Shown here piece by piece: positions 1-15,771 of a DNA stretch of 18,074 nt (position 1 is its first letter; every line of letters begins with the position of its first letter). The position numbers and the translations under genes are program-made. Origin of the DNA: a virus (taxonomy: Duplodnaviria; Heunggongvirae; Uroviricota; Caudoviricetes); IMG/VR virus record IMGVR_UViG_2648501797_000004; one strand, given 5' to 3'. Below the pieces are notes generated by a model that worked only from the letters and a program-made list of their open reading frames with translations, did not search any database and was not told the DNA's origin.

Positions 1-19
1 CTATTTGATAAATATTAAA

Positions 20-1300
20 TTAATTTTTCATTGCTTCGTTATGGGGCATGGTTGGGGCAAACTCGCTTAACTGTGTATTTAACAAAGCTACCTGTGCATT
101 ATTGTTTTCAGACATCCATTTTCCGTATACCTGAAATACCATTTGCGCATCTGCATGGCCCATCTGGTTTGCTATAAATGCCGGGTTAGCACCAGCTGTC
201 AGCGACCAGCAGGCATAAGTATGTCTCGACTGATATGATTTTCGATGGCGGAGTCCGGCACGTTTTATCGCTGCGTCCCACATCTGCCTTATTGAGTCAA
301 CGGTAAAATGGTCACCATAATTTTTTACTCTCGCTGACACTTCAGGTTGAAAAACAAAGGTGCATTTTTGTTTTTCTGTTCTGCCATACTCTCTGAGGTG
401 AACATCAATGATATGCTCTTTGCTCAGTCTCGTTAATGTCATCTGACTCCGGAGAGCGTCGATTGCTGGCTTAATAAGATGAATGACCCGATTGGTTCCC
501 GCCTGTGTTTTTGGTACCGTGAAACGGTCTTTTGCTAAATTTCTCCTGATCATCATTGTTCCATTTTTCAGATCTATGTCCTCCCATCCAAGTGCACACA
601 GCTCACCAGGGCGAACGCCAGTATAAACAGAAACACACCATAAATTTTTTGCTTGCTGATTTCTGCACGCATCGATAAGACGGATAAATTCCTCCCGCGA
701 AAGAGGATCCGGAATGGTTCTTGATTCCTTTAATGGCGAGATCCCCTTAAACGGATTATCTGCCAGGTAACCGTTATCAACACCAAACTGGAACACGGCG
801 TTAAGATTTGTCATGTAATTATTTACAGTTACAGCCGATCTCCCTGGTTGTGTAACAATATAGTTACTTTTGGGGATCTGGTATCCAGTCAGTAGCTCTT
901 TACGAACCTCCAGTAATTTTTCTTTATTAATCGATGAGGCAAGATTTTTTTCACCGATTATGCTCAGGATATTTTTGATGACGGCACGGTATGTGTTGAG
1001 TGATGTTTTGGCGACTTCAGTTTCTTTCAGTGCCAGAAATTTTTCAGCCAGTTCTTTTATGGTTAAATCTTGTCGGGCCTCACCAAATTTTTCCAGATTG
1101 CGTGAGGAGGGAAACTGTTTTGCATAGTCGAAAACACCAGTTTTTATTGCGTAACAAACAGAGGAGCGTAGTTCACCTGCAACGCGCCTGTTTTTTGCTG
1201 TGTCAGGAACCCCCAGATTTTCCCTGACTCTTACGCCTTTATAAACAAACCAGATACGTAATTTCCCTCCATGGTTTTCCACGCCTGTCGGATATTTCAT
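20..1300 (-). CDS. Tyrosine recombinase / phage integrase (lambda Int-like); ORF is open to 1315 but the ATG at 1300 (MKYPTGV...) has the better SD
   Basis: 431-aa ORF with a C-terminal catalytic region of tyrosine-recombinase type (TGVRPGEL, SRHTYACW, VFQVYGKW matching the R, H-x-x-R and Y positions) and an N-terminal arm-type domain; sits next to an excisionase-like gene. Confidence 0.85.
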   Translation of the reverse strand: MKYPTGVENHGGKLRIWFVYKGVRVRENLGVPDTAKNRRVAGELRSSVCYAIKTGVFDYAKQFPSSRNLEKFGEARQDLTIKELAEKFLALKETEVAKTSLNTYRAVIKNILSIIGEKNLASSINKEKLLEVRKELLTGYQIPKSNYIVTQPGRSAVTVNNYMTNLNAVFQFGVDNGYLADNPFKGISPLKESRTIPDPLSREEFIRLIDACRNQQAKNLWCVSVYTGVRPGELCALGWEDIDLKNGTMMIRRNLAKDRFTVPKTQAGTNRVIHLIKPAIDALRSQMTLTRLSKEHIIDVHLREYGRTEKQKCTFVFQPEVSARVKNYGDHFTVDSIRQMWDAAIKRAGLRHRKSYQSRHTYACWSLTAGANPAFIANQMGHADAQMVFQVYGKWMSENNNAQVALLNTQLSEFAPTMPHNEAMKN

Positions 1301-1334
1301 TTCAACTTCTCTCATTAGTTAGTGTGGCTTTTAG

Positions 1335-1586
1335 TCAAGTAAGATGACGTCTTGGTCTCGCTGATGCCTGGCGCTCAATCCAGCGATCAATTTCTTCCAG
1401 GTTGTAAAAGCATGGACTGTTATCCCATGGCATACCGTCATGAGCGACATGCTTATATTCCCTTCCTTCCATAAACGATTTTTCCCGGGCCTTTTTTAAC
1501 GTACCTTTTTTTATTCCTTTCAGCGCAATTAACTGCTCTTCGGATACCCATTTGCCGGGAGAGACAATCATGATTACTTCGCTCAT
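1335..1586 (-). CDS. Excisionase-like small DNA-binding protein (Xis)
   Basis: 83-aa ORF immediately upstream of int on the same strand; basic; contains a GREY motif like the lambda Xis DGREYLF region. Start codon uncertain (MSEV at 1586 or MIV at 1571). Confidence 0.55.
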   Translation of the reverse strand: MSEVIMIVSPGKWVSEEQLIALKGIKKGTLKKAREKSFMEGREYKHVAHDGMPWDNSPCFYNLEEIDRWIERQASARPRRHLT

Positions 1587-1658
1587 CGATTTCTTTATCT
1601 CTTACATCAGACGAGCGCCGGTTGCAGAATACCAGTCACAACCGGCGACAGTTGAACA

Positions 1659-4130
1659 TTAAGAATCAGCCTGACTCGGGATCAGTTTTTGCCAGATAAC
1701 TGAAACGTATTTTGCCTGGTAACGGGCGTCATCAAGTGCATTATGGCGCTCACCTTCGAATGGAATAGCCGTTCTGGCATCGAAGTCTATGGCTTTCCCC
1801 AGCTCAACGATTGTGCGTACATCGCGATCGTTGTAGTAACGCCACGGGCAGGGGATCCCCTGCCGTTCGTATGAACGGCGCAAAATCGTGTTGTCGAAGT
1901 TGGCTCCATTTCCCCAAACCTGAACAAAAAATTCACCGGAGTTTTCGTCGATAAATTCCCGCAATTGTAACAGTGCATCATCTAACGGGATTTCATCGGT
2001 CATAATGGCAGATTGCGCTTCGCGTGATTGCTTAAGCCACCATTTAATGGTGTCCCGATCAATGACTCCGCCAGCAGTTTCCAGATCGATAGTCTTACTA
2101 AATTCCGGTCCCATATCTCCGGTTTGCGGATCGAAAAATATTGCACCTATTGAGATGATCGGGGCATCAGGATTTTTTCCCATGGTTTCAAGGTCGATCA
2201 TTAGATGGTCACACGTCCTGCTGGTGGATGTGATTTCGTGATGACCGTTCACCTTAATTGGGTGATCTGCCGTCTCGCCAGTTTCATTATCGCTATTGTG
2301 ATGCTGATTGCCGCCAGTGTTCTCCTTGTGTGGATGTTCAGCGCCTTCCATTTCCTCCGGATCATCTTCCTGAACTTCAACCTGATACTCTTCATCGAAT
2401 GTTTCTTGGTATGTTGCGTCGCCCATCACCGCGCCACAATCAGGGCAGTTGCCGCCGCCGGTCTGACCGCAGGCGGTGCAGGCTTTTTCCACTTCCTGTT
2501 GCGCCACTGGTTCAGGCTGTTTCGTTTCTGGCTCGTTTTGTAACGCATTTGGACTGTTTTGTTCCGCTTTTTGGTAGTTCCGTTCCGATTCATGCTGGTT
2601 CTGGTTCACAGAATCGCGGGTCTGGATCCCCTTAACCCATTTCGGATCATTCGGGTCACTAATCCCTTCAACAAATTCACCACGTGATGCAGCAAGCAAC
2701 TTATCGGCGTCAGGCTGGCTGATATTGGCTGCCTGCATAATTTTGTTTACTTCGTCAGCGGTAACTTTTATCGGCTCTGGTTGTTCTGAATCTTCAGCGG
2801 TATCTACATTTTGCGGTAAGCCCGTGTATGTGCCATTTTTTCGGGCAAAATATTCTTCTTTTGTGATTTCAGTGGCGCCAGCAGCCAGTGCCTTATCCAG
2901 ACCAGAAAGTTTGTTTGCGCGACCGTATTTTTCTCCGTCCTTATCTGCGAAGAGGAAATAGAACGGCCCCTCACGCTCTACAGATGGTTCAGCTTCCGGC
3001 GCGGTTTCATTTTTTGGGATATCAGATACCTCAGTTTCCACTGCATCAGTTTGTGTTTCTGATGACTGGAGAACATCAACAGTGCCCAGGTCTGTTTCTT
3101 CATTCTCAAACACGCCCTTTGTCGTCAGGTATTCGCAGATATATTTGTTCAGTGCTACGGGATCTTTGTGAATGTCGATCGGACGCTCACGGACAAGGCC
3201 AAAAATAGTTTGGCGGTCGTAGCGAAGGGCATCAGGCTGTTTGCGCATTGATGCCGAGATACGCTTCCAGTCTTCGCGGTCGTTGTCGATAACTTCTTTT
3301 TTTGCCCAGCGATGGATGCTGCCGTCAATGTTTCCGGCATCCACATCACCAGGCCAGAGAGCGTAGGCCAGTTCGTCATCCAGTGTTTTCCATGTCTGCT
3401 TGTATTCGCGATGAATGGCAGCAATGACCGGGCTGATTTTTCCTGTTGAATTTTCAGTGTACTGTTGATTGGCTCTGGCGCGGGCGAGATCAACAACAGA
3501 CGTGTATTTTCCGGTTTCCTTGCGTTCACCTTCGCGACGTTTTTTCCAGATGCGCATCTCTGCCTGAATTTCGGGCCATTTAGCACCAGGAATACATTTA
3601 TGCTTAACCCACCCAATGGCGTGCAACTTAAGCTCCGGATACATGGCGTTAACTTCTGGCATTTTCATCAACGCTTCAACGATATGTCCGTCGAATGTTG
3701 CCATGTCTTCCTGCAACAATTCCTGTGCGCTAATAACCATATCAACGGTGATGTTTTCACATGTGTCGAACTTAACCATGACAGCGTTCTGTACTTCAGG
3801 GGCCAGCTTGTCAAAAGTGACGTTCATCGGATCGGATTCAGTCTCAACCGGGACAAAAGAAGCAGACTCCTCATCCCAGCGGTTTTCCTGCATATATTCA
3901 GCATCCCATGAATCGAGGGCAGGGCGGGGTATGCCAGGTTTATCCTCGCAGACAATAAATTTATAAGCGCAGTCCTGAGCAGCCGGATAATGTTCCAGGA
4001 ACTGCCAGTGAAATTTTGCTCGAGCACGGCGTTCGTCGCCAGCTTCAATGGCTGTGGCTACAGCCACAGCGCCTTCTTCCCTTGTTGCCAGTTCGTCAGG
4101 AATAGCGGCGCAAATAAAGACTTTACTCAT
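1659..4130 (-). CDS. Large modular accessory protein with C-terminal DnaQ-like DEDDh 3'-5' exonuclease domain (domain about nt 1662..2216); N-terminal ~300 aa of unknown function, acidic low-complexity linker, CxxC...CxxC zinc ribbon
   Basis: 823-aa ORF with an SD (GAGG) before the ATG at 4130. The C-terminal ~185 aa carry Exo I (MIDLETMG), Exo II (WGNGANFD) and Exo III (H-NALD-D) motifs. A CTACGQTGGGNCPDCG zinc-ribbon motif lies mid-protein, followed by a long D/E/Q-rich region. Confidence 0.75.
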   Translation of the reverse strand: MSKVFICAAIPDELATREEGAVAVATAIEAGDERRARAKFHWQFLEHYPAAQDCAYKFIVCEDKPGIPRPALDSWDAEYMQENRWDEESASFVPVETESDPMNVTFDKLAPEVQNAVMVKFDTCENITVDMVISAQELLQEDMATFDGHIVEALMKMPEVNAMYPELKLHAIGWVKHKCIPGAKWPEIQAEMRIWKKRREGERKETGKYTSVVDLARARANQQYTENSTGKISPVIAAIHREYKQTWKTLDDELAYALWPGDVDAGNIDGSIHRWAKKEVIDNDREDWKRISASMRKQPDALRYDRQTIFGLVRERPIDIHKDPVALNKYICEYLTTKGVFENEETDLGTVDVLQSSETQTDAVETEVSDIPKNETAPEAEPSVEREGPFYFLFADKDGEKYGRANKLSGLDKALAAGATEITKEEYFARKNGTYTGLPQNVDTAEDSEQPEPIKVTADEVNKIMQAANISQPDADKLLAASRGEFVEGISDPNDPKWVKGIQTRDSVNQNQHESERNYQKAEQNSPNALQNEPETKQPEPVAQQEVEKACTACGQTGGGNCPDCGAVMGDATYQETFDEEYQVEVQEDDPEEMEGAEHPHKENTGGNQHHNSDNETGETADHPIKVNGHHEITSTSRTCDHLMIDLETMGKNPDAPIISIGAIFFDPQTGDMGPEFSKTIDLETAGGVIDRDTIKWWLKQSREAQSAIMTDEIPLDDALLQLREFIDENSGEFFVQVWGNGANFDNTILRRSYERQGIPCPWRYYNDRDVRTIVELGKAIDFDARTAIPFEGERHNALDDARYQAKYVSVIWQKLIPSQADS

Positions 4131-4223
4131 TTTGTTTTAACCTCATGACAGATTTAAGGATGAACAAATCCCTGCCATTGCTGGCATATAAGAATGAAAC
4201 CGGATATTTATTACGGAACTGTT

Positions 4224-4415
4224 TTAAAGACCTGCCGGGATTTCGATATTATCCTGGTGAATAACTTTATCGACCGGGTAACAGTTACCGGGAATTTTCT
4301 GTTCGGTTGCTGCAGTCATACACTCCTGCATTGTCCTGTGAACACTGACTGCAATATCAACTGGCACTCCGGAAACAAGAAAAACTGTCAGAACAAGCGC
4401 AAATGCTGAATTCAT
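4224..4415 (-). CDS. Small hypothetical membrane/secreted protein (63 aa) with hydrophobic N-terminus
   Basis: ATG with AGGA SD; start overlaps the stop of the upstream small ORF in an ATGA arrangement (translational coupling). N-terminal stretch AFALVLTVFLVSGVPVDIAVSV is signal-peptide or TM-like. An alternative plus-strand ORF, 4194..4409, overlaps it. Confidence 0.4.
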   Translation of the reverse strand: MNSAFALVLTVFLVSGVPVDIAVSVHRTMQECMTAATEQKIPGNCYPVDKVIHQDNIEIPAGL

Positions 4416-4600
4416 TGTGCACATCCTTTTGGCATCAGACGTAAACGAGCCAGCATTGAAACAATGCATATTTTATTTAATAGCTCCCGTTCTTGTTTTC
4501 TCTTGTTAATGGCATCTTCAGTAAATACAGGGTTACTGATAGTGACACCAATTTCAAAACAACCTTCAGACGTATTAACGTTTGGTAATAACGTTTTCAT
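4412..4600 (-). CDS. Small hypothetical protein (62 aa), first gene of a coupled pair
   Basis: ATG at complement of 4598-4600 preceded by a GAGGA SD; its stop overlaps the start of the next ORF (ATGA). No recognisable family. Confidence 0.4.
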   Translation of the reverse strand: MKTLLPNVNTSEGCFEIGVTISNPVFTEDAINKRKQERELLNKICIVSMLARLRLMPKGCAQ

Positions 4601-4652
4601 TATCGCGTCCTCAACAATGAATTTTGTGATGCAGTGCCTGGTGCCTCCAGGT

Positions 4653-4679
4653 GACGTTAACCAGTTAACAATTAACGTC
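4653..4679. promoter_or_regulatory. Perfect 8-bp inverted repeat GACGTTAA-N11-TTAACGTC (operator-like) in the divergent intergenic region
   Basis: Palindrome read directly from the sequence; it also contains three TTAAC repeats, and sits between the minus-strand small-gene operon and the plus-strand Q-side genes. Confidence 0.3.
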
Positions 4680-4743
4680 GGATACACTACCTGAGGCTGT
4701 ATCGCGTCGTTCGCTGGGATTACCAGCGGAAAAAATCTGCTCG

Positions 4744-5202
4744 GTGTACCGCGAAAGCGACATCGTACCGGGAGAGCAGACCGCCACCAGCATATTGAAA
4801 CAACGCACAAAAAATCTTGCACCGTTGCCTTACGCCCACCAGCAACAAAAATCACCACAGGAAAAGACGGTGGTAAGCATCACCGTTGATCCAGAGTCTC
4901 CGGAATCTTTCATGAAGCTGCCTAAACGTCGCCGCTGGGTTAAGGAGAAATACACACGTTGGGTTAAGACACAGCCGTGTGCTTGCTGCGGTATGCCAGC
5001 CGACGATCCGCATCATCTGATTGGTCACGGGCAGGGCGGAATGGGAACAAAAGCACATGATCTCTTTGTGTTGCCTTTGTGCAGAAAGCATCACAACGAG
5101 CTGCATACGGATACAGTGGCATTTGAAGATAAGTATGGCTCCCAACTGGAGCTGATATTTCGTTTTATCGATCGCGCGCTGGCAATTGGCGTACTGGCGT
5201 AA
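4744..5202 (+). CDS. Cys/His-rich zinc-binding nuclease-like protein (YbcO/DUF1364- or DUF968-like fold); probable functional start at the ATG at 4912 (96 aa); may be the C-terminal remnant of a longer ydfU-like gene
   Basis: Motif C-x-C-C-G...HHLIGHG...GMGTKAHD...C-x-x-HH-x-E-L-H resembles small phage nin-region nucleases; lies directly upstream of Q. The ORF track start at 4744 is a GTG. Confidence 0.5.
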   Translation: MYRESDIVPGEQTATSILKQRTKNLAPLPYAHQQQKSPQEKTVVSITVDPESPESFMKLPKRRRWVKEKYTRWVKTQPCACCGMPADDPHHLIGHGQGGMGTKAHDLFVLPLCRKHHNELHTDTVAFEDKYGSQLELIFRFIDRALAIGVLA

Positions 5203-5215
5203 GTGGAGAACGAGC

Positions 5216-5968
5216 ATGAACCTTGAAGCCTTACCAAAATATTACTCCCCAAAATCTCCAAAATTGAGCGATGACGCTCCAGCGACAGGCACCGGTTGTT
5301 TAACAATTACGGATGTAATGGCAGCGCAGGGGATGGTGCAGTCGAAAGCACCACTTGGGTTGGCCTTATTTCTGGCAAAAGTTGGTGTTCAGGACCCTCA
5401 GTTTGCGATTGAAGGCCTGCTAAATTACGCGATGGCACTGGATAACCCGACATTGAACAAATTGAGTGAAGAAATCCGGTTACAGATTATTCCTTACCTC
5501 GTGAGTTTTGCCTTTGCTGATTACTCCAGGTCTGCGGCAAGTAAGGCTCGCTGTGAGCATTGTTCAGGTACGGGATTTTATAATGTATTGCGCGAAGTGG
5601 TGAAACACTACAGACGCGGGGAATCTGTAATCAAGGAAGAATGGGTGAAGGAACTATGTCAGCATTGCCATGGTAAGGGCGAAGCCAGCACAGCGTGCAG
5701 AGGGTGTAAGGGTAAAGGGATTGTTCTGGATGAAAAAAGAACCCGGTTTCATGGCGTACCGGTATATAAGATTTGTGGGCGTTGTAATGGAAACCGGTTT
5801 AGTCGTTTACCGACCACGCTGGCACGACGTCATGTCCAGAAGCTGGTACCAGACCTGACCGATTATCAGTGGTATAAGGGGTATGCGGACGTCATTGGTA
5901 AACTGGTAACAAAGTGCTGGCAGGAAGAAGCATACGCGGAAGCGCAATTGAGGAAGGTGACGAGATAA
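5216..5968 (+). CDS. quuQ: Late-gene antitermination protein Q (phage 21/82-type)
   Basis: 250-aa product from an ATG with a GGAGAA SD; Cys-rich zinc-finger region (CEHCSGTG...CQHCHGKG...CRGCKGKG); position immediately upstream of a strong promoter plus terminator and the lysis genes. Confidence 0.8.
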   Translation: MNLEALPKYYSPKSPKLSDDAPATGTGCLTITDVMAAQGMVQSKAPLGLALFLAKVGVQDPQFAIEGLLNYAMALDNPTLNKLSEEIRLQIIPYLVSFAFADYSRSAASKARCEHCSGTGFYNVLREVVKHYRRGESVIKEEWVKELCQHCHGKGEASTACRGCKGKGIVLDEKRTRFHGVPVYKICGRCNGNRFSRLPTTLARRHVQKLVPDLTDYQWYKGYADVIGKLVTKCWQEEAYAEAQLRKVTR

Positions 5969-5999
5969 ATGATTTTTGCTGAAGATGGCGACATGATGT

Positions 6000-6028
6000 T
6001 TGCATTTTTCAAAAAATATGGATAAAAT
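6000..6028 (+). promoter_or_regulatory. Near-consensus sigma70 promoter, candidate late promoter PR' (-35 TTGCAT 6000..6005, 17-bp spacer, -10 TAAAAT 6023..6028)
   Basis: Hexamers and spacing read directly; located about 30 bp downstream of the Q stop and about 45 bp upstream of an intrinsic terminator, as expected for a Q-modified late promoter. Confidence 0.55.
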
Positions 6029-6073
6029 TTTTTCAACGATGGGCTTTGTATACCCGACGTTAAGAAAAAGTAG

Positions 6074-6105
6074 AAAACCCGCTGATGAGCGGGTTTTGTG
6101 CTTTA
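6074..6105 (+). terminator. Intrinsic terminator (tR'-like); also usable on the minus strand
   Basis: 9-bp stem AAAACCCGC / GCGGGTTTT with loop TGATGA, followed by a T-rich tract on the plus strand; the minus strand also has a U-rich tract after the hairpin. Confidence 0.6.
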
Positions 6106-6389
6106 AATGGGGCAATGGTAATGTTGAATCTCATCCCGGGACTCATGTCTGTTAACTTATTATTTAGCTGGTGACTTGGTTATTTGCCTGATGTTTAAAA
6201 TGTTTTCTTCCAGTACAATGTCCCTAAACACAATGAGTCTGCTTATTATATTATTAGCAGAGCTATTACGGCCAAAGTACAGCATAAGCTTTTAAAGCCA
6301 ATCAACCAGTCATCAAGACAGACGGGGTTATTCATAAAAACTCTCCATGTGTGATCCGATGGGGCCTGAAATTAAAGCTTTAATATAGC

Positions 6390-6602
6390 TCATGAAAGGT
6401 AAACATTGGCAGCTGAAGGGCCACGCAGACCATTTATCCGGCAAAATTCCACGCGTAATCCGGTGGTAATTTCTTCTGCATCGCGGAGATTGAGCGCTGA
6501 AACATGAAGCTGGACATCGATACGACCATCGGATGGGGTGATAAGACCCTTGCCGCTTTTGCCGTCAAAGGTTTTGACAATTCCTGTCATTTTACGGGAC
6601 AA
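6390..6602 (-). CDS. cspF: Cold-shock-domain protein, CspF/CspH subfamily
   Basis: 70-aa CspA-family ORF ([12 protein letters not shown]...[10 protein letters not shown]); apparent TTG start with an AAGGAA SD; Qin-like context next to cspB and Q. Confidence 0.8.
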
Positions 6603-6902
6603 AAAAATTCCTTAATACTGATAACTTGGCGCACTATACACACGTTCCTGAAGAAAGCTATAGTTTTTTGATGGGGTTGAAGACGGCTGGATGTCTAAAA
6701 TAAACATTGCTTCATATGTTCAACTATGCGTTAATGATTGCGTCGGTTTGAAGAACAGACGATATACGAAGTAGTTTACTAAAGCAGTTCTCATTTCAGG
6801 TGTTATTCACTTATTCCTTCTTTGAGTCTCTCCAATTAAGTACGAAGTCGTTTCTGTTATGCAAACCATTTATGCCGAAAGGCTCAAGTTAAGGAATGTA
6901 GA

Positions 6903-7118
6903 ATGTCAAATAAAATGACTGGTTTAGTAAAATGGTTTAACGCTGATAAAGGTTTCGGCTTTATTTCTCCTGTTGATGGTAGTAAAGATGTGTTTGTGCA
7001 TTTTTCTGCGATTCAGAATGATAATTATCGAACCTTATTTGAAGGTCAAAAGGTTACCTTCTCTATAGAGAGTGGTGCTAAAGGTCCTGCAGCAGCAAAT
7101 GTCATCATTACTGATTAA
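6903..7118 (+). CDS. cspB: Cold-shock protein CspB
   Basis: 71-aa CspA-family ORF with RNP1/RNP2-like motifs (KGFGFI, VFVHF); long AT-rich leader upstream. Confidence 0.85.
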
Positions 7119-7399
7119 AATTCATCGCTCGTCTGTATACGATAACGAAGAAGGCTGATGCCTGAGTAGAGATACGGACAGAGTAGTGAATATTGGATCT
7201 CTTTAATAAAAAGTAAGGAGGTCCAATACATGAAACAATGGCTAGCATATTTGGCAAAATCTTAATCAGGAAAAGTATGCTAACCATTGTGGTGAAGTGC
7301 AGGTTTGCTGCATGAATAGTTTTACAGCAGAAGCTAACTGCTGGCATGGCAAAACAAAGTGCGTAAGTGGATGACTCCCACAAAAAGCACCACAATCTC

Positions 7400-7426
7400 A
7401 AACCCGCTCAGGCGGGTTTTTTATTA
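7400..7426 (+). terminator. Intrinsic terminator about 290 nt downstream of cspB
   Basis: 8-bp stem AAACCCGC / GCGGGTTT with loop TCAG followed by TTTTATTAT; the stem sequence is nearly identical to the terminator at 6074..6105. Confidence 0.6.
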
Positions 7427-7481
7427 TCTGCTTTAAATATATTATTAAAATATAAAAAATACTTGTTACTAATAAAATCAA

Positions 7482-7652
7482 TCAGGCTACAGCTTTAAGA
7501 TTTGTCTGGAATACTTTGTTGCAATGAGGGCAGATCAAAAGGGCACCTTTTTGTACTCTTGAAAAACTGTGTTCTGACTCTTGGGTGCAGTTTGGGCAGG
7601 AACATTTAACGAGATAATTACGGCGTGATTTTGAGTTTTTACGTTCTGACAT
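7482..7652 (-). CDS. ynfU: Small zinc-ribbon protein (56 aa; CPNC...CPHC), YnfU-like
   Basis: ATG preceded by an AGGAAAA SD; two CxxC pairs; basic N-terminus. The gene symbol is tentative, from recall of Qin small proteins. Confidence 0.5.
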   Translation of the reverse strand: MSERKNSKSRRNYLVKCSCPNCTQESEHSFSRVQKGALLICPHCNKVFQTNLKAVA

Positions 7653-7871
7653 AGGCTTTTCCTGTATAAATGGCCGTATACAGTACACTAAATATGAAAA
7701 CATTTCTCGTATTATTATTTTATATATGACTTTCTTTCAAAATAATTACCCACATTTTTAATGTGTATGTTTTTTTAGCGCCGTTGAGAACAACGTGTGC
7801 TGTCAAAACTACCCCGTAGACTCCGATCTTTTCAAACATATTGCACCATCCGTGTACATCGGGGTGAGGAT

Positions 7872-8087
7872 ATGAAATCAATGGATAAGTTAACAACAGG
7901 TGTTGCCTATGGCACATCGGCGGGTAATGCTGGTTTCTGGGCATTGCAGTTACTCGATAAAGTAACTCCGTCACAGTGGGCTGCAATCGGTGTGCTGGGT
8001 AGCCTGGTTTTTGGCCTGCTGACGTATCTGACAAATCTTTATTTCAAGATTAAAGAAGACAGGCGTAAGGCTGCGAGAGGAGAGTAA
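7872..8087 (+). CDS. essQ: Pinholin, phage 21 S-type with dual start (MKSMDK...)
   Basis: GAGGA SD; dual-start motif M-K-S-M; two TM segments; C-terminus [15 protein letters not shown] like S21. The ORF track begins earlier, at 7797. Confidence 0.85.
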
Positions 8088-8091
8088 TCCA

Positions 8092-8406
8092 ATGACTCAA
8101 GACTATGAACTGGTTGTGAAAGGAGTCCGTAATTTTGAGAATAAAGTTACGGTAACTGTAGCCTTACAGGACAAAGAACGCTTTGACGGTGAAATTTTTG
8201 ACCTGGACATCTCGCTGGACCATGTTGAAGGTGCCGCGCTGGAGTTTTATGAGGCAGCAGCCAGAAGGAGCATCAGACAGGTCTTCCTGGATGTTGCTGC
8301 CGGGTTATGTGAAGGGGACGAGCTGTTGCCAGAAACGCGACCCTGTTCAGAGGCTCGGTATACCATAAAAATTAACAGTTCAGATAACTCGATTACGGGT
8401 TGTTAG
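8092..8406 (+). CDS. ydfR: Prophage protein YdfR (unknown function) inserted between holin and endolysin
   Basis: 104-aa ORF starting 4 nt after the holin stop; identity recalled as Qin YdfR. Confidence 0.6.
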   Translation: MTQDYELVVKGVRNFENKVTVTVALQDKERFDGEIFDLDISLDHVEGAALEFYEAAARRSIRQVFLDVAAGLCEGDELLPETRPCSEARYTIKINSSDNSITGC

Positions 8407-8461
8407 CTTTTTGCAGTTGGCTTTCCAGTATCTTTCATTGGTAGCATCCTGATAAATATCC

Positions 8462-9489
<1,028 letters not shown>

Positions 9490-9852
9490 ATTAATATTAA
9501 ATCGGATTATTTTTAGCGCTGAATGTGAAATTTAAATAAAAAGGACTCTTCCATGAGTCAAAATCCTTGAAATCTTAAGGGTAAGATAAAAGGTCATTAG
9601 ACAGAATGACACGTTTTATTAATAAATAAAGCTATTGTTTCATTCGTGTGTTTTTCTTTACAAAAGTAATCCTTGCTATGGTTGGTTAATCATGCGTTAA
9701 TGGTGTTCTGGTTTGTTACAAAATTATCTGAAGCAGTCATTGTTATAATTTTATTATTTGTACCTCTTGAGATTTCCTTGTTGGTTTTTCTCTCTGATAT
9801 TTTTTTTCGGACCATTCTGCCCAAGGGCTAACTTCTTCAAAAGGTAATAATA

Positions 9853-10065
9853 ATGTCTAACAAAATGACTGGTTTAGTGAAATGGTTTAACCCTGAAAAA
9901 GGTTTTGGTTTCATCACGCCGAAAGATGGTAGCAAAGATGTGTTTGTGCATTTCTCAGCTATTCAGAGCAACGATTTCAAAACGTTAACTGAGAATCAGG
10001 AAGTCGAATTTGGTATTGAGAACGGACCTAAAGGCCCTGCAGCTGTTCATGTAGTGGCACTTTGA
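9853..10065 (+). CDS. cspI: Cold-shock protein CspI
   Basis: 70-aa CspA-family ORF ([34 protein letters not shown]...); long AT-rich leader of about 360 bp upstream. Confidence 0.85.
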
Positions 10066-10267
10066 GGTAGAAAATATTACAAACCATATTCACTTTAGAT
10101 GCCCGTGTTGCCATGGTTCTCAGTATAGAACATCATCTTTTGATGTTTCTGACAGAAATCCTTTCGGGGCAAAATGTATCTTTTGTAAATCAATGATGAT
10201 TACATTTGATAATATTTCACAATACTTAAATGTTAGCCATCTGTCGTTAGATTTAAGAAAGTGAAAA

Positions 10268-10293
10268 TGAAGGCTCCTTCGGGAGCTTTTTTG
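10268..10293 (+). terminator. Intrinsic terminator (GGCTCC-TTCG-GGAGC followed by TTTTTT) about 205 nt downstream of cspI
   Basis: Hairpin with a UUCG tetraloop and a 6-T tract read directly from the sequence. Confidence 0.5.
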
Positions 10294-10335
10294 CTTAGTG
10301 TCTAGTCGATGGATACTCACATATTACGGTAACAT

Positions 10336-10566
10336 ATGAAAAAAATAATAGTTTTTTTTAACTCTGAACCAGCAATGGTAGTGCCAGTGATGACCGGAGT
10401 TAACACCATCATGCGTGAATACCCAAATGGCGAAACAACACACCTCACTGTAATGGCTGCAGGGTTTCCATCTCTGACCGGAGATCATAAAGTCATTTAT
10501 GTAGCAGCGGATCGACATGTAACTTCAGAAGAAATTCTGGAAGCAGCAATGAGACTCTTGAATTGA
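10336..10566 (+). CDS. ynfN: Small hypothetical protein, possibly YnfN-like; an internal ATG at 10411 would give a 51-aa product
   Basis: ORF between cspI and gnsB; weak SD at both candidate starts; the assignment is by position and recalled length only. Confidence 0.4.
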   Translation: MKKIIVFFNSEPAMVVPVMTGVNTIMREYPNGETTHLTVMAAGFPSLTGDHKVIYVAADRHVTSEEILEAAMRLLN

Positions 10567-10735
10567 TTTGATTCTAATGCATTGATAATAAATGATAATC
10601 ATCTTTATCTGTTTGTGTGAAATTTAGACCGTCGTATGTTGATTATTGCGATGTTTCATCTTATCTTTTATACGTTTGCTCCATATAATTGACACTACTG
10701 TGTACCAAGAAAGTCATAACAGACTAAAAGAGGAA

Positions 10736-10912
10736 ATGATGAACATTGAAGAGTTAAAAACAAAAACAGAAGCAGATATTTCTGAATATATAACAAAAAA
10801 AATCATTGAGCTTAAGAAAAAGACCGGGAAAGAAGTTACCAGTATCCAGTTTACTGCACGGGAAAAAATGACTGGTCTTGAAAGCTATGATATCAAGATT
10901 GATTTAATCTAG
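10736..10912 (+). CDS. gnsB: GnsA/GnsB-family small protein
   Basis: 58-aa product MMNIEELKTKTEADISEYITKK... after an AAAAGAGGAAA SD; TATAAT and TTGACA hexamers lie upstream at 10684..10695. Confidence 0.7.
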   Translation: MMNIEELKTKTEADISEYITKKIIELKKKTGKEVTSIQFTAREKMTGLESYDIKIDLI

Positions 10913-11207
10913 TATGTTTATAGTATTAGCATCAATTTCTCATCAGATGCTATTCAACAATACAAATTACCCATAAACCTCGTTTTTACGGGGTTTTGTT
11001 ATATTTAAACATTACCGAATAGATATAAATCTCGATTGTCGATGGTATTGGTTGTGTGACAATACCTAGTCTTTCCGGTATGCCTGAAGAGAATACAAAC
11101 GACAGATTATGTAAGGGAAACGCGCTGAAACTTTCACTCTTTCATGCTGAGTGATTTGACGTTATATTTTTAGCCGCAAGTGAAGAGCAAACGAATGGAG
11201 CGACAAA

Positions 11208-11414
11208 ATGCATAAAGATCAATACATTGATGCCCCCTCCCAGGAGCAGGTTCGTGTAAAAACTATGCTTAATAGCACCATTTCGATGGGTTACCCGGAT
11301 GTTGTAATTGCATGTATAGAACATCAAGTATCTCTGGAAGCATTCAGGGCAATTGAGGCCGCGTTAGTAAAGCACGATAAGAATACGAAGGATTATTCCC
11401 TGGTGGTTGACTGA
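11208..11414 (+). CDS. Hypothetical small prophage protein (68 aa)
   Basis: ATG with GGAG SD 8 nt upstream; no recognisable motif. By position it could correspond to the small genes found between lysis genes and cos in lambdoid prophages. Confidence 0.4.
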
Positions 11415-11859: not shown

Positions 11860-12029
11860 GAGGTTGCCCTGTATTCAGTGTCGCTGATTTGTATTGTCTG
11901 AAGTTGTTTTTACGTTAAGTTGATGCAGATCAATTAATACGATACCTGCGTCATAATTGATTATTTGACGTGGTTTGATGGCGTAGATGCACGTTGTGAC
12001 ATGTAGATGATAATTATTATCATTTTGCG

Positions 12030-12240
12030 GGTCCTTTCCGGCGATCCGACAGGTTACGGGGCGGCGACCTCGCGGGTTTTCGCTATTTATGAAAATTTTC
12101 CGGTTTAAGGCATTTCCGTTCTTCTTCGTCGTAACTTAATGTTTTTATTTAAAATACCCCCTGAAAAGAAAGGAAACGACAGGTGCTGAAAACGAGCTTT
12201 TGGGCCTCTGTCGTTTCCTTTCTCTGTTTTTGGCCGTGGA
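12030..12240 (+). other. Lambda-type cohesive end site cos (cosQ-cosN-cosB); cosN 12-nt overhang GGGCGGCGACCT at 12058..12069
   Basis: Recognised by near-identity to the lambda genome ends (...GATCCGACAGGTTACG / GGGCGGCGACCTCGCGGGTTTTCGCTATTTATGAAAATTTTCCGGTTTAAGG...), followed by the Nu1 leader. Confidence 0.8.
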
Positions 12241-12247
12241 ATGAACA

Positions 12248-12793
12248 ATGGAAGTCAACAAAAAGCAGCTGGCTGACATTTTCGGTGCGAGTATCCGTAC
12301 CATTCAGAACTGGCAGGAACAGGGAATGCCCGTTCTGCGAGGCGGTGGCAAGGGTAATGAGGTGCTTTATGACTCTGCCGCCGTTATAAGATGGTATGCC
12401 GAAAGGGATGCTGAAATTGAGAACGAAAAGCTGCGCCGGGAAGTTGAAGAACTGCGGCAGGCCAGCGAGACAGATCTCCAGCCAGGGACTATTGAGTACG
12501 AACGCCATCGACTTACGCGTGCGCAGGCCGACGCACAGGAGCTGAAAAATGCCAGAGACTCCACTGAAGTGGTGGAAACCGCATTCTGTACTTTCGTGCT
12601 GTCGCGGATCGCAGGTGAAATTGCCAGTATTCTCGACGGGATCCCCCTGTCGGTGCAGCGGCGTTTTCCGGAACTGGAAAACCGACATGTTGATTTCCTG
12701 AAACGGGATATCATCAAAGCCATGAACAAAGCAGCCGCGCTGGATGAACTGATACCGGGGTTGCTGAGTGAATATATCGAACAGTCAGGTTAA
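12248..12793 (+). CDS. nohA: Terminase small subunit Nu1
   Basis: 181-aa product near-identical (from recall) to lambda gpNu1 (MEVNKKQLADIFGASIRTIQNWQEQGMPVLRGGGKGNEVLYDSAAV...); overlaps the downstream A ORF by 26 nt as in lambda. Confidence 0.9.
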   Translation: MEVNKKQLADIFGASIRTIQNWQEQGMPVLRGGGKGNEVLYDSAAVIRWYAERDAEIENEKLRREVEELRQASETDLQPGTIEYERHRLTRAQADAQELKNARDSTEVVETAFCTFVLSRIAGEIASILDGIPLSVQRRFPELENRHVDFLKRDIIKAMNKAAALDELIPGLLSEYIEQSG

Positions 12794-14192
12794 CAGGCTG
12801 CGGCATTTTGTCCGCGCCGGGCTTCGCTCACTGTTCAGGCCGGAGCCACAGACCGCCGTTGAATGGGCGGATGCTAATTACTATCTCCCGAAAGAATCCG
12901 CATACCAGGAAGGGCGCTGGGAAACACTGCCCTTTCAGCGGGCCATCATGAATGCGATGGGCAGCGACTACATCCGTGAGGTGAATGTGGTGAAGTCTGC
13001 CCGTGTCGGTTATTCCAAAATGCTGCTGGGTGTTTATGCCTACTTCATAGAGCATAAGCAGCGCAACACCCTTATCTGGTTGCCGACGGATGGTGATGCC
13101 GAGAACTTTATGAAAACCCACGTTGAGCCGACTATTCGTGATATTCCGTCGCTGCTGGCGCTGGCCCCGTGGTATGGCAAAAAGCACCGGGATAACACGC
13201 TCACCATGAAGCGTTTCACTAATGGGCGTGGCTTCTGGTGCCTGGGCGGTAAAGCGGCAAAAAACTACCGTGAAAAGTCGGTGGATGTGGCGGGTTATGA
13301 TGAACTTGCTGCTTTTGATGATGATATTGAACAGGAAGGCTCTCCGACGTTCCTGGGTGACAAGCGTATTGAAGGCTCGGTCTGGCCAAAGTCCATCCGT
13401 GGCTCCACGCCCAAAGTGAGAGGCACCTGTCAGATTGAGCGTGCAGCCAGTGAATCCCCGCATTTTATGCGTTTTCATGTTGCCTGCCCGCACTGCGGGG
13501 AGGAGCAGTACCTTAAATTTGGCGATAAAGAGACGCCGTTTGGCCTCAAATGGACGCCGGATGATCCCTCCAGCGTGTTTTATCTCTGCGAACATAATGC
13601 CTGCGTCATCCGCCAGCAGGAGCTGGACTTCACTGATGCCCGTTATATCTGCGAAAAGACCGGGATCTGGACCCGTGATGGCATTCTCTGGTTTTCGTCA
13701 TCCGGTGAAGAGATTGAACCGCCTGACAGCGTGACCTTTCACATCTGGACGGCGTACAGCCCGTTCACCACCTGGGTGCAGATTGTCAAAGACTGGATGA
13801 AAACGAAAGGGGATACCCATAGTTTAAGTGGCAGCACGAATGCAGCTGGTAATCACAGCCATAGAGATGGCCGTCGATTTAACCCCAGTGTTTTTAAAGA
13901 TACTTATCAATATGGTTATACAAGCTCAGGTCAAAATACCTGGGGTGTACAAGGCTCAGTAGGTATGTCTACGGGGTGGTTAGCTAATACCAGTACAGAT
14001 GGTAATCATAGCCACTCACTGTCCGGCACAGCAGCATCTGCAGGTGCACACGCGCATACTGTCGGTATTGGTGCTCATACGCACTCCGTTGCGATTGGTT
14101 CACATGGACACACCATCACCGTTAACGCTGCTGGTAACGCGGAAAACACCGTCAAAAACATCGCATTTAACTATATTGTGAGGCTTGCATAA
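12768..14192 (+). pseudogene. stfQ: In-frame deletion fusion: terminase large subunit gpA N-terminal ~350 aa (12768..13817) joined to the C-terminal ~124 aa of a side tail fibre protein (13818..14192)
   Basis: Lambda gpA-like sequence runs through ...WVQIVKDWMKTKGDT, then switches abruptly to a His-rich tail-fibre C-terminus (GNHSH, HSHSLSG, HAHTVGIGAHTHSVAIGSHGHTITV ... [11 protein letters not shown]); all head and tail genes are absent. Confidence 0.8.
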
Positions 14193-14767
14193 TGGCATTC
14201 AGAATGAGTGAACAACCACGGACCATAAAAATTTATAATCTGCTGGCCGGAACTAATGAATTTATTGGTGAAGGTGATGCATATATTCCGCCTCATACAG
14301 GTCTGCCAGCAAACAGTACCGATATTGCACCGCCAGATATTCCGGCAGGCTTCGTGGCTGTTTTCAACAGTGATGAGTCATCGTGGCATCTCGTTGAAGA
14401 TCATCGGGGTAAAACGGTTTATGACGTGGCTTCCGGCGACGCGTTATTTATTTCTGAACTCGGTCCGTTACCGGAAAATGTTACCTGGTTATCGCCGGAA
14501 GGAGAGTTTCAGAAGTGGAACGGCACAGCCTGGGTGAAGGATACGGAAGCAGAAAAACTGTTCCGGATCCGGGAGGCGGAAGAAATAAAAAACAACCTGA
14601 TGCAGGTAGCCAGTGAGCATATTGCGCCGCTTCAGGATGCTGCAGATCTGGAAATTGCAACGGAGGAAGAAATCTCGTTGCTGGAAGCATGGAAAAAGTA
14701 TCGGGTATTGCTGAACCGTGTTGATACGTCAACTTCACAGGATATTGAATGGCCAGCACTGCCGTAG
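14192..14767 (+). CDS. tfaQ: Tail fibre assembly protein (Tfa)
   Basis: 191-aa ORF whose start overlaps the stop of the fibre fragment (TAATG); Tfa-like sequence and position after stf. Confidence 0.8.
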
Positions 14768-14864
14768 GGTAAAACATATAAATTCTATAATTAGATGTAT
14801 CTTTCCATTTACGGCAAGGAAGGGGGCTTGGAAGACGTAAAGCATCTCACACCGAGATTATTTT

Positions 14865-15455
14865 TTATATGTCAGGTGTCTGAAGTTTTGCTTTGGCTCT
14901 TAAAATGGTTTGCCGCGAGGTTTTGAATTCCCGGGCAATGGCACTTATACTTACACCTGACTTAATTCGTTCGAATACCACCTGTTTCTGTTCTTCATTT
15001 AACACAGGTGGTCGACCAAAACGTTTCCCTGCGCCGCGGGCTCTTACTATCCCGGAATGAGTGCGTTCAAGTAAAAGGTCTCGTTCAAATTCAGCGACTG
15101 CTGAAATTACTTGCATCATCATTTTTCCTGTTGGACTGGTCAGGTCAATGCCCCCCAATGCTAAGCAATGCACTCTGATACCTGTTTCGGTCAGTTGTTC
15201 CACTGTTTTCCTGATATCCATTGCATTACAACCAAGGCGATCCAGTTTTGTCACAATCAATTGATCACCACATTTCAGGCGAGCAAGCAACCGGTTAAAA
15301 CCAGGACGCTCACTGGTTGCTGCTGAGCCGCTAATGTGTTCTTCGATTATTTGCTGAGGTTTGATTTTAAAACCTGCACTTTCGATTTCCCGGCGTTGAT
15401 TTTCGGTGGTCTGATCCAGCGTTGATATCCGACAGTAAGCAAAAATTTGAGACAT
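14865..15455 (-). CDS. pinQ: Serine recombinase / DNA invertase of the Pin/Gin/Hin family
   Basis: 196-aa product with the N-terminal resolvase catalytic motif ([10 protein letters not shown]) and a C-terminal HTH ([17 protein letters not shown]). Confidence 0.9.
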
Positions 15456-15771
15456 AGTGAGACTCTATACGAAATTGGTGTTCATATCATAATGCATCTC
15501 AGAAAATAATTATGATTATTTTTGTGCATATTTGTATGTACACGTTCGAAAATAAACGAATGCGTATGCAACCCCGTAATTTTGGTGAGACCCAAAATCG
15601 ATTTTGTGAAAAATGGCTTTAACTCGGTTTGTTTTTCGAGTTCCGGGCGGACTCAAGGAAGAAGAATAGTGTTGCGTGTTATTTTAACCAGATTTCAAGT
15701 TGTTTGGTCGTGGAAAAGAGGAGCAAAATGTTGTTAAAGTGGAAAAATGATAAAAAAGTAAGTTTATTATA

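Follow-up and report, generated by a model that had tools for sequence, protein, structure and literature searches.

Among the closest described systems to the locus studied here is Qin (Kim), a cryptic prophage of Escherichia coli K-12, with its dicA-dicC immunity region and its dicB operon (dicBp-ydfABC-dicF-dicB-ydfDE). This operon is transcribed from dicBp, a promoter upstream of ydfA that DicA represses and Rem derepresses, and experiments gave no sign of a promoter inside it (PMC10448788). The dicBF literature (the oldest dicB studies aside) handles the stretch from DicF to dicB as plain intergenic DNA. We analysed a stretch of 18,074 nucleotides from a virus of the Caudoviricetes (IMG/VR record IMGVR_UViG_2648501797_000004; hereafter the window), which is a Qin-family lambdoid cryptic prophage of E. 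coli inserted beside rspB. Our focus is the interval 4601-4911, where a minus-strand gene set headed by dicB meets a plus-strand set made of a ydfU remnant (ydfU') and a Q-type antiterminator gene, and which contains a palindrome at 4653-4679. We consider it likely that this interval is a deletion scar in a Qin prophage, that the palindrome is a stem-loop of the leader RNA preceding dicB, and that the junction lies at a recurrent deletion end point.

The window resembles K-12 Qin on both sides of the interval. Both elements share the rspB neighbourhood and a collinear gene order, with int-xis-exonuclease-ydfD-dicB on one strand and ydfU-quuQ-csp/lysis on the other, and dicB, ydfD, ydfU, quuQ, csp and the lysis genes are 99.5-99.8% identical. 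BLAST places window 3364-4686 on positions 4934-6255 of the K-12 (C600) locus, L003, and window 4680-8291 on positions 12001-15612 of the same locus. The K-12 element has 5,752 bp between these flanks, from dicF to the 5' half of ydfU, that the window lacks; conversely, its int, xis and 823-aa exonuclease genes are broken by IS2 and those of the window are intact. The Qin-family traits dicA/dicC switch, dicBp and the dicF gene upstream of dicB are absent from the window, and their absence is the deletion itself.

Three intact phages, Tritos (OV696610), HannyBb (PP925841) and PhiR42_1 (PV340562), show what such elements contain when complete. Their ydfD-dicB-leader flanks are 99.2-99.8% identical to the window and their ydfU-Q flanks 92-99.9%, but, unlike the window, they carry DicF, cI, cro, cII/Rha and replication genes between the flanks (9.5-10.6 kb), and full structural modules. 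The flanks are 9,465 bp apart in Tritos, which has DicF, ydfCBA homologues, cI, cro, a Rha-type regulator, a replication protein and hokD there, and 10,553 bp apart in PhiR42_1, which has cI, cro, cII, O, relBE and rem. Full-length ydfU is present in K-12, Tritos and PhiR42_1. The complete temperate phages Tritos (L004), PhiR42_1 (L128) and HannyBb have dicB, DicF and the whole dicB operon. A study of 2016 searched phage databases for DicB and DicF and obtained no matches (PMC5069750). The operon's presence in complete temperate phage genomes means that it is not restricted to defective prophages.

Alignment with Tritos, HannyBb, PhiR42_1 and K-12 maps the junction to the base; both flanks, left of 4686 and right of 4680, are collinear with these relatives at 99.5-99.9% identity. 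The overlap of the BLAST blocks and three-way alignments place it at GGATACA (4680-4686, no strand assigned), where the dicB leader (GGATACA) and the interior of ydfU (GGATGCA) share an imperfect microhomology of 7 bp. Since the junction has the A of the leader and known ydfU alleles read GGATGCA, the cross-over lies within CA (4685-4686). Collinear flanks, a short shared sequence and truncation on both sides are all present, as in microhomology-mediated deletions. Relative to K-12, ydfU misses its first 527 nt (175 codons), and the Qin genes dicF, ydfC/B/A, dicA, dicC, ydfX/W, flxA and ydfV are missing, together with relBE, hokD, the antirepressor gene rem, a small open reading frame (ORF) and dicBp. 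Rfam gave no DicF match in the window, against 76.7 bits for DicF in K-12 (L003 6344-6395). The change had the direction of a deletion, because ydfU is left without its N-terminal 175 codons and a conserved RNA structure is cut in half.

On these alignments, a deletion of 6-11 kb took out the immunity and early-regulatory region, and the interval is the scar that it left. A single illegitimate, microhomology-mediated event would have joined a point 80-86 nt upstream of the dicB start to the middle of ydfU. It would have taken away dicF, ydfC/B/A, dicBp, the cI/cro-like dicA/dicC switch, flxA, relBE, hokD, rem and any replication genes, and severed the leader 1-7 nt from the foot of the palindrome hairpin, leaving its 3' third. 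A preliminary description of this DNA had proposed a deletion junction in 4601-4911 at which the int side meets the Q side without repressor, cro or replication genes, and both proposals hold: no helix-turn-helix, repressor, Cro or replication domain was found by Pfam in the ORFs overlapping the interval, hence no cryptic repressor either. The immunity and replication modules are lost as it had supposed, the latter relative to the intact phages. An int-to-Q architecture that is ancestral, that of a naturally minimal element that never suffered a deletion, is extremely improbable. The sole point in its favour is that K-12 Qin itself is already devoid of replication genes. It is contradicted by the truncation of both the ydfU pseudogene and the RNA structure, and by intact phages with near-identical flanks and 9.5-10.6 kb between them. 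Furthermore, the exact junction occurs in one of 5,426 complete E. coli genomes (Ecol_AZ147) and the undeleted K-12-type sequence in 3,892. A separate, independent deletion was observed in strain FCI56 (L002 6199-6606), where the interior of dicB (equivalent to window 4510) is fused to ydfU, 395 bp further upstream in that gene than in the window, with loss of the same immunity region.

The deletion has implications for expression. The promoter dicBp and the genes dicA and rem all lie within the deleted segment, and a consensus scan of both strands of 4300-5400 found no sigma-70-like site, where 1.5 were expected by chance. For these reasons, the interval is not a divergent control region. The preliminary description had presumed that the expression of both gene sets depends on it; this does not stand, as there is no promoter-like site and the truncated leader is fused inside an ORF. 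The set dicB-ydfD-exo-xis-int would have been deprived of its only documented promoter and of its repressors, and ydfU'-Q of the rightward early transcription by which Q is read in intact phages. Given this promoter loss, both sets (dicB to int, and ydfU'-Q) are probably silent or reliant on fortuitous transcription. The strain holds intact dicB and Q genes without any of the known controls DicA, DicC, Rem, DicF and dicBp.

The palindrome is exactly as perfect as first described, with arms GACGTTAA (4653-4660) and TTAACGTC (4672-4679) separated by an 11-nt spacer, between dicB and ydfU'. Since the left flank contains it entirely, it belongs natively to the DNA upstream of dicB and was not made by the join. 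A perfect 8-bp inverted repeat with a spacer of up to 20 nt arises in 7% of dinucleotide shuffles of the 311-bp interval, which is not significant alone; the significance of the palindrome comes from its conservation and covariation in relatives. The ~70 bp that hold it are found in about 4,460 of the 5,426 E. coli genomes, at up to 12 places in each, and on plasmids too. In K-12 the right arm reads TTAACGCC, which gives a G·U pair on the dicB-sense strand.

Read on the minus strand, the palindrome is hairpin 1 of the leader, GACGUUAA(UUG)-loop-(UGG)UUAACGUC, as indicated by covariation and RNAalifold. We counted pairs in the directly homologous subfamily that shares the loop GUUAACUGG, using a fixed-length alignment of 33 distinct fixed-register sequences taken from viral contigs and from one genome per species; the wide-family MAFFT alignment, in which the 5' arm is out of register, was excluded. 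At the palindrome helix 97.3% of the cells are paired, against 16-45% with slid partners, and two-sided compensatory changes occur at 5 of its 11 pairs. At the second position of the helix, G·U is the commonest pair (22 of 33), and the A-U pair of the window, which makes the palindrome perfect, is a minority allele. In agreement with this, a scan of viral contigs for the adjacent conserved hairpin returned more than 120 loci with 63 different sequences at the position of the palindrome; nearly all 63 form a hairpin, with a mean uninterrupted stem of 7.9 bp versus 3.6 bp in shuffled sequences. The G·U pairs exist only in the dicB-sense RNA (they would be A·C on the other strand) and the half-site varies freely, which argues for an RNA helix and not a protein operator. 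From these comparisons, the palindrome is best read as the DNA image of the surviving stem-loop of a conserved structured leader RNA before dicB.

The preliminary description had left open an orphan operator or a relic, and of these the relic stands, as a surviving leader helix. It is very unlikely that the palindrome serves as a DNA operator through which a regulator from another part of the genome controls one of the divergent gene sets, or both. It does have the look of one, being a perfect 8-bp inverted repeat, with arms 11 bp apart, in non-coding DNA that separates divergent genes. Yet operators tend to come as several related copies overlapping a promoter, and the motif has no second copy, with up to three mismatches, in the window or in intact K-12 Qin, is missing from the dicA-dicC operator region, and has no promoter-like site within 4300-5400 to control. 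Nor is the half-site conserved with symmetry at the DNA level: its letters change as long as pairing stays, with compensatory changes in the arms, and the majority allele loses the DNA symmetry yet retains G·U on one strand. Finally, the palindrome is embedded in a larger covarying RNA fold, and its place in intact relatives is within the transcript, over 1 kb downstream from the promoter of the operon. An intrinsic terminator was also considered for the palindrome and ruled out, as it is not in the terminator scan and is followed by no U-run or T-run.

The leader RNA to which this helix is assigned spans ~185 nt in its intact form and is predicted to fold as a four-way junction between the DicF terminator and the dicB ribosome-binding site. 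RNAalifold, applied to 20 intact leaders of the dicB/kilR type, found 21 of 44 pairs compensated and predicted the palindrome hairpin independently. The consensus comprises an outer stem of ~21 bp, an inner hairpin, a 3-bp junction stem, the palindrome hairpin and a CCNGG-AGGCA-CCNGG hairpin. The 5' strand of the outer stem begins directly after the DicF terminator and its 3' strand stops just before the ribosome-binding site; many two-sided changes support this stem in the consensus, and the K-12 and Rac folds agree with it. Single-sequence folds are consistent with the consensus, at -64.7 kcal/mol (z = -5.1) for the K-12 leader and z = -3.8 for that of Rac.

The remnant in the window retains the palindrome hairpin, hairpin 2 and one strand of the outer stem, and still has a fold with z = -2.7. 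Hairpin 2, CCUGG-AGGCA-CCAGG (4637-4651, minus strand), aligns with positions 126-140 of the model of the small RNA family STnc100; it is the most conserved element of STnc100-type RNAs, and its U-A pair is replaced by G-C in 9 of the 33 distinct sequences. The 3' strand of the outer stem (4614-4636, minus strand; consensus columns 198-221, which pair with 37-57) is orphaned. In the fold of 4595-4700 on the minus strand, a hairpin at 4596-4621 is predicted to hold the dicB start codon, beside the GAGGA ribosome-binding site. It can form in the remnant because its 5' arm, UUCAUUGU, is without its usual partner, being part of the long outer stem in K-12; it could change the translation of dicB. 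We also observed that GUAGUG, imported by the deletion (4685-4690, minus strand), pairs with CACUGC (4631-4636), the partner of which in the intact leader is GUGGUG. This chance pairing is predicted to give the remnant a 6-bp closing stem once more.

The leader resembles STnc100 (RF02076), a prophage-associated small RNA family of Gammaproteobacteria whose function is unknown (PMC12370729; bioRxiv 10.64898/2026.05.13.724894). Both have an outer stem around several hairpins with a variable centre, a covarying hairpin at the position of the palindrome, and a near-invariant CCGGGAGGCACCCGG hairpin followed by CACC. This architecture is found in the intact homologues, and what the window retains of it is the pair of 3' hairpins plus the outer stem's 3' strand. 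The intact DicF-dicB segment of K-12 matches the whole 206-position STnc100 model (34.4 bits, E = 1e-5), and, with relaxed thresholds, the remnant at 4637-4686 (minus strand) matches positions 92-140 (15.9 bits, E = 0.42); there is no Rfam gathering-level match in the interval, the STnc100 threshold being 47 bits. Bona fide STnc100 members in the viral contigs that we fetched score 57-165 bits, end in an intrinsic terminator, and are stand-alone genes or tandem arrays near tRNA genes. In contrast, the dicB/kilR leader has no terminator and continues into the ribosome-binding site of an ORF: in the window, the dicB ATG lies 36 nt downstream of the hairpins and no terminator-like site follows them. 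Tandem arrays of 2-4 STnc100 copies (with a period of ~250 nt in L037 and L061) adjoin tRNA clusters in viral contigs (L104 6983-7660; L020 2265-3380; L037 342-1038; L118 4349-5513). In the RNAs of these arrays the outer stem is acceptor-like and the conserved hairpin is followed by a CACC(A) tail, which hints at tRNA-like processing.

The same leader is not confined to dicB. It lies ~20 nt upstream of kilR in Rac-SA53 and in the Shigella Stx phage 75/02, and upstream of terB in P7; overall it precedes DicB, KilR-type proteins of 72 to 77 aa, hydrophobic peptides of 36 aa and other small ORFs. In Klebsiella, Raoultella, Scandinavium, Pseudescherichia and other hosts it precedes unrelated ORFs, encoding 36-aa hydrophobic or 93- to 96-aa acidic products (L112, L211, L046, L053, L023, L197, L198). 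The finding of unrelated small ORFs after one leader suggests a portable cassette for small, possibly toxic, early-left genes. The c4-icd region of P1/P7 offers a parallel, in which an operon under repressor control encodes a structured RNA ~50 nt ahead of a small gene for a cell-division inhibitor, but c4 folds as a long stem with two hairpins inside it and lacks the CCNGG-AGGCA-CCNGG hairpin. The C4 antisense RNA model (RF01695) was tried and rejected: it has no match with E<=10 in 4400-4950, nor with E<=1 in the K-12 leader, and c4 of P7 scores 69.6 bits on it with a different fold.

Judging by position and structure, the most likely role of the leader in intact phages is a cis-acting one, on the processing, stability or translation of a toxic downstream ORF. 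The long outer duplex beside the ribosome-binding site would be a plausible target of RNase III. The lambda N leader is a known case of this kind, in which RNase III processes a duplex of ~20 bp or longer by the translation start and the cleavage affects translation. Elsewhere in the dicB operon, RNase III produces the 5' end of the 190-nt DicF species (PMC10448788), and surveys of RNase III targets mention DicF by citation only (PMC6212723, PMC5371410). We think it rather unlikely that the leader fragment surviving the deletion is still functional, its hairpins binding a factor or its start-codon hairpin silencing the translation of dicB, in a way that would explain the persistence of such truncated alleles. 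Such a role would be in line with an intact dicB in the window, with the presence of a truncated-leader allele in 181 complete genomes, and with a remnant that still folds (hairpins 1 and 2, start-codon hairpin, z = -2.7). Persistence may be plain clonal descent. Moreover, dicB is disrupted by a 103-bp tandem duplication in Ecol_AZ147, the closest relative, which argues against selection to keep it.

The junction of the window is one of several at the same place. At least six independent deletions of several kb, found in other proviruses and genomes of E. coli, end within ~4 nt of the same TGTATCC (window 4680-4686), and BLAST shows each of the other truncated leaders to be a simple deletion collinear with PhiR42_1. 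The partner ends lie in cII (L308; L218 and L247), in O (L096), in lygF or its neighbour (L382, L240) and in ydfU (the window, L001 and L238). Loci L242, L234 and L414 also belong to the set with events at this site. Junction homologies are 2-12 nt long (TATC, TA-n-CC, TG-n-ATCC, CGTATCCGGC), and every cross-over interval includes or abuts the TA at window 4683-4684. As one of the junctions occurs in 181 of the 5,426 complete E. coli genomes and another in 4, these two are not assembly artefacts. An untargeted scan, anchored on the 68-nt 3' module, covered 120 loci and found three truncated classes, all ending at TGTATCC, and no truncated class ending elsewhere in the ~175-nt leader. Under a uniform model, the chance of three classes out of three at the site is roughly (7/175)^3. 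A deletion in the opposite direction was found in strain O15_8X, where the leader is kept up to TGTA and joined to the exonuclease gene via a 2-bp TA; there was one such event among complete genomes and none in the viral contigs scanned.

Together, these junctions point to TGTATCC as a structure- or site-associated fragile point. It is the 5' edge of a stacked helix block made of the junction stem and the two hairpins, and the leading idea is that a structure-associated stall or break there would be repaired through microhomology. Selection probably favours the survival of such deletions, because all those directed upstream remove dicBp, dicF and the cI/cro pair; it does not explain the coincidence at the nucleotide level. 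Classical work on lacI and phage T7 reportedly described palindrome-associated, microhomology-mediated deletions. As in those cases, junction homologies at TGTATCC are short (2-12 nt) and the end lies at the foot of a potential hairpin, but here the palindrome is outside the deleted segment and does not bring the two repeats together, and one end point is reused with partners kilobases apart.

A site-specific enzyme acting at or near TGTATCC, such as a topoisomerase, a nuclease of phage or host origin, or an invertase of the Pin/Cin type at a quasi-site, could also produce a recurrent end, but we find this doubtful. It would account for one fixed and one variable end, for events in both directions, and for cross-over intervals that all include or abut the same TA; the prophage is also annotated as encoding PinQ (ORF 14865-15455), and we take TTCTCTGTATCC to resemble an invertase half-site. 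However, the cross-overs (-7 to -2 relative to CC|GG) miss the dinucleotide of the would-be invertase core, the partner sites share just 2-12 nt of microhomology, and events in the opposite direction are rare. As the cross-overs do not suit a fixed 2-bp core and a search of the window with AAACCNNGGTTT found no pix-like site, a Pin/Cin quasi-site is unsupported as the cause. Cutting of an extruded junction by RusA or RuvC, considered on general grounds, also fits poorly, in that some junctions keep the hairpin-side T at -3, at odds with a cut directly 5' of CC.

Several points weigh against the combined reading of a Qin deletion scar, a leader stem-loop and a recurrent end point. The scan that gave most of the deletions is biased, having been designed to find junctions at TGTATCC, and the untargeted support for a hot spot amounts to the window and three classes. 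As DNA, the hairpins have only moderate stability (-8 to -11 kcal/mol; z of -1.3 to -2.9), so a hairpin-stall mechanism is not compelling, and selection for the loss of immunity and toxin control may shape which deletions survive. Membership of the leader in STnc100 is not established, because the 34.4 bits of the intact K-12 leader fall short of the 47-bit threshold, and its putative cis-acting role is deduced from position and structure. As for the promoter scan, it was a simple consensus match that weak or non-sigma-70 promoters could escape.

The scar in itself is ordinary prophage decay, and its relevance is limited to annotation. What is moderately interesting more widely is the STnc100-like leader before dicB and kilR, with a recurrent deletion end point at the foot of its hairpin. 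The leader is strongly covarying, common to kilR of Rac, Stx phages and P1-like phages, and related to the uncharacterised STnc100 small RNAs, which makes it a testable candidate for controlling the cell-division inhibitors of prophages after transcription. Judging by the recurrent end point, the domestication of prophages at the dicB locus would not be random, and TGTATCC offers a simple system to study structure-associated deletion formation. A stronger proposition, in which TGTATCC is a genuine fragile or recombinogenic site in the leader and the leader an unrecognised class of cis-acting structured RNA, is one that we would hold only as an improbable conjecture. Were it true, TGTATCC would repeatedly strip Qin-type prophages of immunity, dicF and the replication region, sparing dicB, so that prophages would be domesticated along a route that sequence or structure directs. 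The leader, as a four-way junction similar to STnc100 and perhaps a substrate of RNase III or RNase P, would then gate the expression of dicB, kilR and other small toxic genes of lambdoid early-left operons.

The genes around the scar fit the Qin assignment. The locus beside rspB in Ecol_AZ147 (L001) matches the window at 100% identity over 1-4573 and 99.97% over 4471-11300, and RefSeq annotates there an integrase, an excisionase, an exonuclease, ydfD, dicB, a truncated DUF968 pseudogene, ydfT, cspF/B and lysis genes. On the minus strand of the window, Pfam and this annotation identify int (20-1300), xis (1335-1586), the 823-aa exonuclease gene (1659-4130) and ydfD (DUF1482; 4224-4415). At 4412-4600 on the same strand lies dicB, encoding an intact 62-aa cell-division inhibitor (Pfam DicB, 136.8 bits, profile 1-62 of 62), a label also given in the identical Ecol_AZ147 locus and in the K-12 annotation. 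It heads the set dicB-ydfD-exo-xis-int, which is the remainder of the former dicB operon. The duplication in the dicB of Ecol_AZ147 (L001 6171-6376) corresponds to window 4471-4573, which is single-copy in the window.

On the plus strand, ydfU' (4687-5202) keeps the last 174 of the 349 codons of a DUF968/HNH gene (Pfam DUF968, profile 18-171 of 171). It lacks its own start, and RefSeq labels it an N-terminally truncated pseudogene in the identical Ecol_AZ147 locus. There are in-frame internal starts at GTG 4744 and ATG 4911, and the DUF968/HNH domain is near-complete; a shortened product is conceivable despite the pseudogene label. The Q-type antiterminator gene quuQ/ydfT that follows (5216-5968, plus strand) is intact (Pfam Antiterm, 181 bits; RefSeq ydfT). 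Between the Q gene and cspF, at 6074-6097, there is a terminator-like hairpin that is strong and bidirectional (AAAACCCGC...GCGGGTTTT). It is preceded by a promoter-like site at 5999-6028, just past the Q stop codon, in a layout resembling the pR'-tR' late control of lambdoid phages. Elsewhere in the window, Rfam gathering-level matches comprise two cspA-type thermoregulator leaders (6742-7134 and 9706-10111), belonging to the cspB and cspI homologues, and an IS009 RNA within the region of a tail-fibre assembly gene (14535-14733).

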